Origin: a virus
IMG/VR virus record: IMGVR_UViG_3300045988_074365
Coordinates: 1 to 54,317 of that record
Strand: one strand, 5' to 3'
Length of the DNA: 54,317 nt
Both the position numbers and the translations under genes were made by a program. Under the pieces are notes generated by a model, which did not search any database, was not told where the DNA came from, and saw only the letters and a program-made list of their open reading frames with translations. This document shows positions 42,177-43,883 of this stretch, one piece after another (position 1 is the stretch's first letter; the number at the start of each line of letters is the position of its first letter).

Positions 42177-42649
42177 CATTCCCTTGTACGGATTTATCAG
42201 TTGCCGGGAAGCAAGCTGGAATGTCTAAGGGAAGTGGTACAAGAAGCGGTCTATTGTGGGAAGTTGAGAGAATACTAACAGAAATCAGAGATAGCAACGG
42301 AGAATTACCACAGATTTTGTTCATGGAGAACGTGCCACAAGTACATAGTCAGGATAATATGCCTGACTTTAGAAAGTGGCTAGATTTCCTCGAAAGCCTA
42401 GGTTACACAAATTACTATCAAGACTTGAATGCTAAAAATTATGGTGTAGCGCAAAATCGTGAAAGGTGCTTTATGTTTTCATTCCTGGGCGAGTACAATT
42501 ACCATTTCCCACAGCCTATACCTCTCAAAAAGAAGTTGAAAGACTATTTTGAGGATAATGTAGATGAAAAGTATTACATCAACAATGAAAAGACTGACAA
42601 GCTAATAAAACAGCTTATTGACAACGGCACATTGCCACAACACAATCTT

Positions 42650-42688
42650 GACAGACAGACAGACAGACAGACAGACAGACAGACAGAC
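42650..42688 (+). repeat. tetranucleotide repeat (GACA) x 9.75
   Basis: Nine full GACA units plus gac. In frame it encodes (DRQT)n. Confidence 0.95.
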
Positions 42689-43883
42689 TTGCGTTGACGG
42701 AACAATCAATAAACCACAGCAGAGAGAAGTTGCAAACTGTATCAAGGCAAGATATGACTGCGGAATATCAAACTTGCGGTCAGACGGAAACCTTGTTGTT
42801 AAAAGGAATGGTGGATAAAAACATAGAGTCTACGGCATCCGTGATTGATGTTTCCGTAGCGATTATGTCAAGAGATTACAAAGGACCAAATAACTACGGA
42901 ACGAATGGAGTGATTGAATGGAAGTAATAGGAAGTGTATATGTAGAAGTTTCAGACAGATTTCAAAAAGGCATTATCGGGGGGCATTTCCCGATGTGTAA
43001 AAGCTGAAAAACACGATTTAGGAGTAATTATGGCAGATGTAAACGTAATAGGCTCTCTTGAAGCGAAATTTGAGAGTACCAACAGAATTTATGACGTGAG
43101 GGGGTGTAGTCCGACATTGAGTACAATGCAAGGTGGAAATCGAGAGCCGAAAATTCTTGAAGTGAAGCAGTTAGGATTTATGGATAATGGAACAGGCAAG
43201 CACCAATCAAACACAGTATATGACGAAAATGCACTTTGCCCTAATATCACAACAGTCGAGGGCGGCGGTACAAAACAGATTAAAATATGTGAAAGTCAGA
43301 TAGTTGCTATGCGTGGCAGAAATCCAGACAATCCGTCAGATAGAACCGCAGGAAACCCAACGGAGCAGAGATTAGAGGTAAATATGCAAGGTACAAGTAA
43401 TTGCTTAACGAGTGTGCAAAAAGATAACATGGTTCTTGAAAAACAAGGCATATCCACTAAAGGCAAACAGAATGACATTGCAAGTACAATTTTGAGTGGT
43501 TACGAACGCAGTAATATGACCAGGTTTAATGCAGATAATGCCGTTATTGAAAAAAATTGGTCAAATATCAAGCAATGGTTCCCAATGTGGTACAGTTGTT
43601 TCCGATAACGGCATATCGGCTAATCTTGTAGCTGGCACACACGGATATGCAAATAGCCATATAGCTACACAATATCGTATCAGAAAGCTAACACCGAGAG
43701 AGTGCGGACGGCTGATGGGTGTATCTGATGAAGATATTGACAAAATGGCAGCAGTAAACAGTAATACGCAGTTGTATAAGCAATTCGGAAACAGTATTGT
43801 CGTAGATGTTATGTGTGCTATGTTTAAGAATTTGAACATCAATCAAGGAGATACAGTAGTGTAATAAGAAAGGAAACGCCAAT

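Follow-up and report, generated by a model that had tools for sequence, protein, structure and literature searches.

A hypervariable GACA repeat at the catalytic/recognition junction of a phage C5-cytosine methyltransferase gene as a possible selector of recognition modules

INTRODUCTION

Phase-variable DNA methyltransferases are known from bacterial pathogens. For the phasevarion-type enzymes, two accounts (PMC7383803, PMC11475388) describe repeats within the open reading frame (ORF), changes in unit number that shift the reading frame, and relatives that differ in the number of units. Here, we describe a C5-cytosine DNA methyltransferase gene (41881..43864) with a (GACA)9.75 tract in a phage genome of 54,317 nucleotides (nt), IMG/VR record IMGVR_UViG_3300045988_074365, positions 1 to 54,317. 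This whole stretch is referred to as the window, and the features described lie on its + strand unless stated otherwise. Like the Type III mod and Type I hsd phasevarions, the gene has a tetranucleotide repeat within a methyltransferase ORF, and its frame is shifted by gain or loss of units. It departs from them in encoding a C5-cytosine and not an N6-adenine enzyme, in belonging to a temperate gut phage instead of the chromosome of a host-adapted pathogen, and in carrying the tract at the junction of the catalytic and recognition regions rather than near the 5' end. Furthermore, two of the three frames that follow the tract lead to different recognition modules, rather than to ON and OFF, and the gene has several repeat tracts.

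Frameshifts that affect recognition are known from the NgoAV-type Type I hsdS genes, in which a poly-G frameshift changes the recognition domains of the specificity component, specificity being altered rather than activity simply lost. There, an S subunit with two target recognition domains is truncated; the GACA gene would instead pick between two modules in overlapping frames of a C5 enzyme. Another relevant group comprises the enzymes of the Bacillus phages SPR, phi3T, rho11s and H2, with which the gene shares a single catalytic core and tandem modules between motifs VIII and IX. The Bacillus phage enzymes are single intact ORFs with no repeats, whereas the GACA gene, with about eight modules, is laid out as two ORFs and contains repeat tracts.

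The C5 methyltransferase M.AquI naturally consists of two polypeptides, the split being in the variable region, and other C5 methyltransferases have detached fragments that can complement each other (PMC3404938). The lineage described here resembles M.AquI in having motifs I-VIII on one chain and motifs IX-X on the other, with overlapping ORFs. M.AquI has one specificity and no repeat, whereas both predicted chains of the GACA lineage carry whole modules and the first of them is variable.

Phage slippage tracts have been shown only recently to act as bet-hedging switches. In T2, the DNA modification gene agt acts as a contingency locus whose switching is a trade-off between two restriction systems of the methyl-dependent type (Type IV; bioRxiv 10.1101/2025.10.21.683753), and poly-G tracts of Campylobacter phages were reported by Sorensen (2021), as cited in PMC12823448. 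The GACA gene shares with the T2/T4 agt and rIIA homopolymers and with the Campylobacter phage poly-G tracts the presence of slippage tracts in phage genes that give reversible frameshifts. Those loci have short homopolymers with ON/OFF effects, whereas the present methyltransferase gene combines a long tetranucleotide array with a second one and with poly-G runs, and its specificity may change. Our literature search found no account of a phage C5 methyltransferase in which a repeat chooses between recognition modules encoded in overlapping frames.

RESULTS

The GACA tract and the three frames that follow it

Tandem Repeats Finder and direct reading agreed on a (GACA)9.75 tract at 42650..42688, with a period of 4, 9.8 copies, 100% matches and no insertions or deletions. 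The tract is situated 3' of methyltransferase motif VIII (QNRER) and 5' of the first recognition-like module, at the catalytic/recognition junction to which a preliminary description of this DNA had assigned it. It is a perfect repeat within an ORF and its unit is not a multiple of 3, as expected of a phase-variable gene. The conserved lead-in YYINNEK..LIDNGTLPQHNL, in frame 2 within 42177..42649, precedes the tract, which is always read as (DRQT)n; the tract length modulo 3 sets the downstream frame.

With 39 nt, the length found in the window, the remainder is 0 and the catalytic half meets a stop two codons on (state 0). Frame 2 then reads ...LPQHNLDRQTDRQTDRQTDLR, i.e. ...LIDNGTLPQHNL(DRQT)3DLR, and is ended by the TGA at 42695..42697 (ORF end at 42697 including the stop). 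This stop had the same position in 35/35 distinct relatives. Frame arithmetic agreed with the preliminary description in that the loss of one unit fuses frame 2 to frame 3, with module 1 in frame. Frame 3 is open at 42609..42815 and reads (DRQT)n followed by CVDGTINKPQQREVANCIKARYDCGISNLRSDGNLVVKRNGG*, and a length of 2 modulo 3 (state 2) consequently gives the catalytic half plus module 1, with a stop 2-11 codons on. The gain of one unit fuses frame 2 to frame 1, which has a TGA at 42649..42651 and is then open at 42652..42924 (91 codons, against the approximately 92 first proposed), ending ...GMVDKNIESTASVIDVSVAIMSRDYKGPNNYGTNGVIEWK / ...AIMSRDYKGPNNYGTNGVIEWK. Translation also bore out that frame 1 reads module 1 out of frame and module 2 in frame. 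A length of 1 modulo 3 (state 1) yields the catalytic half, a linker of ~38 codons made of module 1 DNA read out of frame, module 2 and a conserved stop.

The 54-kb window contained two perfect tetranucleotide arrays of at least four units, both inside the methyltransferase gene. The sole run of at least six G in the window was also inside this gene.

Tract length among related phages

We have gathered relatives from viral, genome and metagenome collections, using as patterns the upstream flank together with two repeat units and two further stretches of the gene. This yielded 41 distinct loci, from viral and human-gut metagenome collections, with a GACA tract between the same flanks. The tract lengths of these loci, taken from separate assemblies, followed 4-nt steps: 7, 11, 15, 19, 23, 27, 31, 35, 39, 43, 47, 51, 55 and 67 nt. 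The longest pure tracts had up to 16.75 units. A fixed tract length, which would have spoken against the switch put forward in the preliminary description, was not what we observed, as the length differed in 28 of the 39 locus pairs with no more than two mismatches across ~545 nt of flanks. Three loci (L001, L032 and L033) carried tracts of 55, 27 and 47 nt between identical flanks. A sub-lineage marked by a single GGCA interruption, whose distance from the 3' end is constant, had lengths of 27, 31, 35 and 39 nt, and the tracts also included the variant units (GACAGGCA)n, ACAA and TACA. The comparison indicates that stepwise change of the tract, 4 nt at a time, far outpaces substitution in the flanks. 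Unit number thus varies much faster than the flanks diverge, as in contingency loci.

The three frame phases were seen in 11, 14 and 16 of the 41 loci, and pure tracts accounted for 4, 10 and 12 loci, respectively.

A sister lineage carried a pentanucleotide repeat at the same junction, with (GAACA)8 in L082 and (GAACA)2 in L083. The L082 protein (1501..3150, P0033) has the out-of-frame reading of module 1 and the L083 protein (1501..2880, P0029) has the in-frame reading, each inside a full-length single-chain protein.

Four loci (L005, L016, L021 and L027) end inside the GACA tract, and two others (L004 and L020) lie on one IMG/VR contig, in which the versions of the region at the two ends differ. 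The repeat, or mixtures of strains, may thus break assemblies at the tract.

Modules 1 and 2 in conserved overlapping frames

The frames downstream of the tract were compared over 35 distinct downstream sequences. We designate as X the frame that reads module 1 (frame 3 in the window) and as X+1 the frame that reads module 2 (frame 1 in the window). The third frame, the one used in the window, stopped after two codons in 35/35. Frame X was open through module 1 for 39-48 codons and then stopped. In 32/35 sequences, frame X+1 stayed open for 74-82 codons and shared the end NGVIEWK(N/Y)*, the three exceptions being deletion derivatives. The openness of frame 1 seen in the window is therefore conserved in homologues, a point that had been left for comparison in the preliminary description.

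In the window, module 1 (CVDGTINKPQQREVANCIKARYDCGISNLRSDGNLVV, then KRNGG and a stop) occupies 42690..42818 in frame 3, and it is in frame in the proteins P0022, P0023 and P0089. The frame 1 reading (42689..42927) takes the module 1 DNA as a linker (..LALTEQSINHSREKLQTVSRQDMTAEYQTCGQTETLLL) and continues into module 2 (KGMVDKNIESTASVIDVSVAIMSRDYKGPNNYGTNGVIEWK) up to the conserved stop at 42925..42927. The same X+1 reading is present inside the intact proteins P0002-P0008. Module 2 has four diverged alleles, all at an offset of +1 from module 1.

The pattern of nucleotide changes was then counted in each frame, the random expectation being ~20% synonymous. Module 1 had 17 synonymous and 9 non-synonymous changes when read in frame X, versus 5 and 21 in X+1. 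Within alleles of module 2, the changes were 26 synonymous and 25 non-synonymous in X+1, versus 9 and 42 in X. For the catalytic core the counts were 130 synonymous and 63 non-synonymous, with 133 of the 193 changes at codon position 3, and for the region of motifs IX-X they were 76 and 59, with 84/135 at codon position 3. Module 1 thus evolves under purifying selection in its own frame, the same changes looking random in the other frame, and modules 1 and 2 each behave as selected coding sequence in their own frame. We have also resampled synonymous codons with the module 1 protein kept unchanged and the codon usage of the window; only 2.4% of the trials left the +1 frame open over the whole of module 1 (p 0.024).

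Natural derivatives were found fixed in each of the two frames. In P0002-type proteins the tract and the first half of module 1 have been lost by microhomology deletions, and the module 2 frame is read as one chain. In P0023 the tract is degenerate and modules 1 and 3 are read in one frame, with no poly-G.

An early repair model, which assumed random 1-nt frameshifts at A4 (42801) and near 42918, was ruled out, since both offsets are conserved in all relatives: module 2 follows module 1 at +1, and module 3 follows module 2 at -1 with an overlapping stop/ATG. Frame paths were also traced automatically by tblastn of 120 homologues against all loci, an approach that was only roughly useful. Most of its 19 "other" switch points corresponded to the module 1/module 2 overlap, which was scored in this way because the protein set holds both readings.

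Identity of the gene and its two-ORF layout

Three fragments of 41881..43864 matched the Pfam family PF00145, and the motifs of C5 methyltransferases occur in the order I, IV, VI, VIII, IX and X (ELFAGYGSQ, SFPCTDLS, ENVPQV, QNRER, RKLTPRECGRLMG and QFGNSIVV). The N-terminal coding piece with motif I (41881..42153) is in frame 1, in an ORF spanning 41881..42228, and matches profile positions 1-59 (E 6e-9). The catalytic core with motifs IV, VI and VIII (42177..42649) is in frame 2, open at 42131..42694, and matches positions 64-215 (E 8e-36). The last module (GQISSNGSQCGTVVSDNGISANLVAGTHGYANSH), motifs IX and X and the stop are in frame 2 at 43520..43864, with a match to positions 269-322 (E 1e-10). 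After repair of the frame, the protein matched the M.HhaI and M.HaeIII structures in phmmer searches, and its tblastn alignment with the multispecific methyltransferases of the Bacillus phages rho11s and H2 covered 95% of the query, with 27% identity.

Motifs VIII and IX are ~1 kb apart, and this interval holds about eight short recognition-like modules, each with a core of the [ST]x[LI]x[AST] type (NCIKARYD, AIMSRDYKG, SRCVKAEKHD, CSPTLSTMQGG, CPNITTVEGG, NCLTSVQKDN, STILSGYE and SANLVAGTHG). Homologues contain different subsets drawn from the same set. Tandem modules between motifs VIII and IX are the arrangement of the multispecific phage C5 methyltransferases.

Motifs IX-X and the further modules belong to a second ORF. 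Its start signals in the window (42907..42920) are a GGAG at 42907..42910, a 7-nt spacer that ends in the frame-3 TGA at 42915..42917, and an ATG at 42918..42920. The frame X TGA thus sits directly before this ATG, which overlaps the end of the module 2 ORF (ATGGAAGTAA / ATTGAATGGAAGTAA). The junction GGAGT[AG]ATTGA-ATG-GAA was kept in ~62 of 64 instances, ahead of three downstream sequences (MEVIGS, MEVLGS and MEKLTD). The second ORF was intact through motif X in 11 of the 36 fully covered loci. Complete two-ORF examples are L056, L059 and L062, and gene callers predict two genes in L076 and L079. Because the stop/ATG junction is conserved and the second ORF has modules and motifs IX-X, the lineage encodes the enzyme as a pair of ORFs divided within the variable region. 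As in M.AquI, motifs I-VIII and IX-X are on overlapping ORFs, with the second ORF of the window cut at a G6 run.

The first piece of the second ORF in the window (MEVIGSVYVEVSDRFQKGIIGG.., frame 3, 42918..43007) corresponds to module 3 and is cut short by this G6 run; in-frame relatives read ..GISRCVKAEKHDLGVIMADV.. at this place. Another ORF begins with the sequence MADV behind an AGGAG (43020..43024), a 5-nt spacer and an ATG at 43030. It is read in frame 1 (43020..43608), begins MADVNVIGSLEAKF.., encodes about four more recognition-like modules and ends early at 43608 owing to a frame shift at an A7 run. In relatives with module 3 out of frame, MADV behind the same AGGAG is usually the start of the final ORF, and the MADV-start ORF is called as a separate gene in L076 and L079. 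Relatives with module 4 out of frame had no comparable restart site.

One relative, L072 (4001..5410, P0106), has motifs I-VIII and (GACA)5.5 fused in frame to an HsdS-like recognition domain (PF01420). This protein is without motifs IX-X, and the rearrangement endpoint is exactly at the repeat.

Other slippage tracts and frame breaks in the window copy

The window gene is not a single uninterrupted ORF: its motifs fall in frames 1, 2, 2, 2 and 2, and the frame is broken at 42154, 42650, 42918, 42978 and 43550. The coding path changes from frame 1 to 2 at an ACTT tract and stops in frame 2 at the GACA tract. Module 1 is then in frame 3 and module 2 in frame 1, and the path continues from frame 1 to 3 at 42918, from 3 to 1 at the G6 run (42978) and from 1 to 2 at the A7 run (43550). 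General sequencing error was rejected as the cause of these breaks, as every other long ORF of the window, up to 1357 amino acids (aa), is intact.

The (ACTT)5.75 tract (42154..42176; 5.8 copies and 100% matches in Tandem Repeats Finder) is located just 5' of motif IV and exceeds by one unit that of the in-frame homologues, which read FTYLLTYSFPC (four whole units); because of this extra unit, motif I (frame 1) is out of register with motifs IV-VIII (frame 2). Pure ACTT tracts had four whole units in nine loci, five in two (the window and L030) and three in two (L015 and L018); most other relatives have an interrupted, stable version. Five units put an ATG at 42146 in frame with motifs IV-VIII.

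The G6 run in module 3 (42978..42983) would be in frame as G5 or G8. With the flanks found in the window, this poly-G had 5, 6, 7, 8, 9 or 10 G in relatives, and some alleles were interrupted. The other type of module 3 also has variable G6-G9 runs in relatives. Module 4 (DVRGCSPTL) contains an in-frame G5 run (43100..43104) interrupted by an A (GTGAGGGGGTG), where relatives have a homologous run that varies from G6 to G9. The poly-G runs of modules 3 and 4 are just before the (C/I)S(R/P)(C/T)(V/L) core (relatives L035-L064 and L076-L080) and are unusual for a G+C content of 37%. As ACTT and poly-G also vary among relatives, the gene resembles a contingency locus with several tracts.

The A7 run (43550..43556) shifts frame 1 to frame 2, where relatives have GAAAAAGTCGGT, with A5 followed by GTC, in frame. 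It is a lesion specific to this copy, which looks like ordinary mutational damage and not like a shared variable tract. Taken together, the state 0 of the GACA tract, the extra ACTT unit, the G6 run in module 3 and the extra base at A7 indicate that the window copy is silent. A change in the GACA tract alone would not restore an active enzyme in the window, because ACTT, G6 and A7 also break the frame.

The only other long G/C run in the window is a C8 on the + strand (G8 on the - strand) at 52328..52335. Situated 41 nt upstream of the ATG of a minus-strand ORF (51502..52287, 261 aa) that had no match in Pfam, it might serve as a promoter spacer of variable length.

Genomic context and source of the phage

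The window genome is that of a temperate, siphovirus-like phage with 37% G+C, and among its products are a portal of the SPP1 type, a terminase and a serine recombinase. It is identical to MEGAHIT contig k119_104176 of the ENA metagenome assembly ERZ27261393; this contig was identified through the gene downstream of the methyltransferase, whereas the exact product of the upstream gene gave no match. Related phages came from human-gut assemblies, some of them as prophages within contigs of 119-380 kb. A megablast search of the gene region against the phage collection gave no match, the matches being at the protein level only. The closest matches were to Streptococcus phage enzymes for the methyltransferase and to Eggerthella and Clostridium phage enzymes for the terminase. 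A lone genome-collection match to a metagenome bin carries the host label Paludibacteraceae, which we distrusted because of the 37% G+C and of these Streptococcus, Eggerthella and Clostridium phage affinities.

Directly 5' of the C5 methyltransferase gene there are two intact genes, for an N6/N4 DNA methyltransferase (PF01555, 40856..41842) and an SNF2-type helicase (39541..40908). These are fused or duplicated in some relatives (L080 and L083). An ORF at 35080..35781 (233 aa) is likely an anti-defence gene, since the C-terminal domain of its product matched the Thoeris inhibitor family Tad8 in Pfam (E 4e-27).

DISCUSSION

The comparison of relatives shows that the GACA tract is hypermutable and that it rotates the frame through three outcomes, all of them conserved; the two longer ones each end in a module that is conserved as protein. 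We propose that it is a contingency-locus microsatellite that chooses whether recognition module 1, module 2 or neither is present on the catalytic polypeptide, and we give this explanation as a whole an even chance of being correct. The enzyme of the GACA lineage would work as two polypeptides, in the manner of M.AquI, with the catalytic chain and the second chain assembling. From such a two-chain assembly it would follow that the tract phase decides if the specificity of module 1, that of module 2 or neither joins those of the second polypeptide. The set of methylated sites would thereby change, beyond the enzyme being on or off. The likely benefit would be bet-hedging between hosts with restriction enzymes that are blocked by 5-methylcytosine and hosts that attack methylated DNA, a trade-off that has its counterpart in the T2 agt contingency locus (bioRxiv 10.1101/2025.10.21.683753).

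Several observations weigh against this explanation. No tract state joins a complete enzyme in one chain in the GACA lineage, and neither alternative frame reaches motifs IX-X, so the switch makes sense only if the enzyme is made of two polypeptides; the active two-polypeptide, multi-module enzyme that the model requires is not known from this family. In state 2 the first ORF ends ~100 nt before the ATG of the second ORF, and because of this gap state 2 would be without translational coupling. The second ORF was interrupted in 25 of the 36 fully covered relatives, mostly at poly-G, and relaxed selection would give the same result. Four lesions are present in the window copy, and A7 lies outside the shared variable tracts. 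The tract lengths are those of consensus sequences of separate assemblies and not variation inside one population, and the 55-nt tracts in SPAdes contigs, together with the contigs that end inside the tract, are probably k-mer limited, so that some real tracts may be longer. The phase frequencies in the 41 loci had no significant bias and gave no sign of selection for an ON state. The selection signals could in part reflect recombination imports from intact alleles, as the family is very mosaic, and of two distant homologues one, L069, keeps the +1 frame open over module 1 without needing it. Of the three-way switch as first proposed, the variable tract and the conservation of both frames found support in the comparison; the absence of motifs IX-X from either frame and the breaks of the window copy at ACTT, G6 and A7 did not fit. 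The three-way selector is thus supported by comparison but remains unproven.

Two other explanations were weighed. Plain ON/OFF phase variation, as in phasevarion mod genes, would make the two open downstream frames incidental. It accommodates a hypervariable tract with all three phases present and the open +1 frame of L069, and tetranucleotide repeats within the ORF are a well-known feature of phase-variable methyltransferases (PMC7383803, PMC11475388). We consider it rather unlikely, since no phase yields a full-length single chain in the GACA lineage and there is hence no simple ON state. In addition, the protein sequences of modules 1 and 2 are each conserved, in frames that differ, the openness of the +1 frame is poorly explained by chance (p ~0.024), the stop/ATG junction is conserved, and derivatives fixed in either frame exist. 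A second possibility is a decaying gene, in which the methyltransferase is no longer needed, the microsatellite drifts neutrally and the downstream frames are functionless. The four frame breaks of the window copy, including A7, the interrupted second ORFs, the near-uniform phase frequencies and the many deletions and mosaics in the family all speak for decay. We nevertheless doubt it, because the same relatives have a synonymous excess in the catalytic core, in motifs IX-X and in modules 1 and 2, and their frame breaks are nearly confined to repeat tracts and the conserved ORF junction, with few clear breaks elsewhere (e.g., A7 in the window and L055). Long pure tracts (16.75 units, G10) also persist at 37% G+C, ~2 kb of the gene are kept in more than 60 phage contigs, and the start/stop architecture is conserved.

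The remaining explanations concern how the sequences were obtained or how they are translated. That the tract lengths and the other breaks are short-read errors at repeats is hardly credible to us. Some contigs do end in the tract, several SPAdes contigs have exactly 55 nt, which looks k-mer limited, and homopolymer lengths are somewhat error-prone. Against this, the window is a MEGAHIT k119 contig, with a k far above the 39-nt tract, and its other long ORFs are intact. Moreover, independent assemblies from different studies give an exact 4-nt ladder of lengths, and intact proteins from other contigs hold one to three DRQT repeats. Translational recoding, with a ribosomal shift at the repeat or at the module 2/module 3 junction that gives the full-length enzyme at any tract length, is very improbable. 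Every member of the lineage needs a frame change at that junction to join motifs I-VIII to IX-X, as recoding would provide, but the junction contains no X XXY YYZ slippery heptamer, the frame X TGA is directly before the ATG, and the GGAG 7 nt upstream of this ATG fits ordinary initiation. To our knowledge, GACA repeats are not a known frameshift site.

The selection of module 1 or 2 by the GACA tract may be part of a broader arrangement, in which the whole gene is a combinatorial specificity switch. The ACTT tract would act as a master ON/OFF, the GACA tract as a three-position selector and the poly-G runs as knock-outs of the single modules 3 and 4, with linkers of a Shine-Dalgarno sequence plus ATG as restarts. 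At GGAG..ATG MEVIGS and AGGAG..ATG MADV translation would restart, such that the remaining modules and motifs IX-X are still made. We offer this extension tentatively and regard it as speculative. If it is true, one phage burst would hold many methylation patterns, a hedge at once against differing restriction specificities and against the restriction of methylated DNA.

There is also a practical warning: gene callers and the assignment of methylomes to genes will mis-annotate such loci as pseudogenes or fragments. If the selection of modules by the tract is true, the lineage would be a natural example of modular, split C5 methyltransferases, and phages could vary which sequences get methylated, not merely whether they are.

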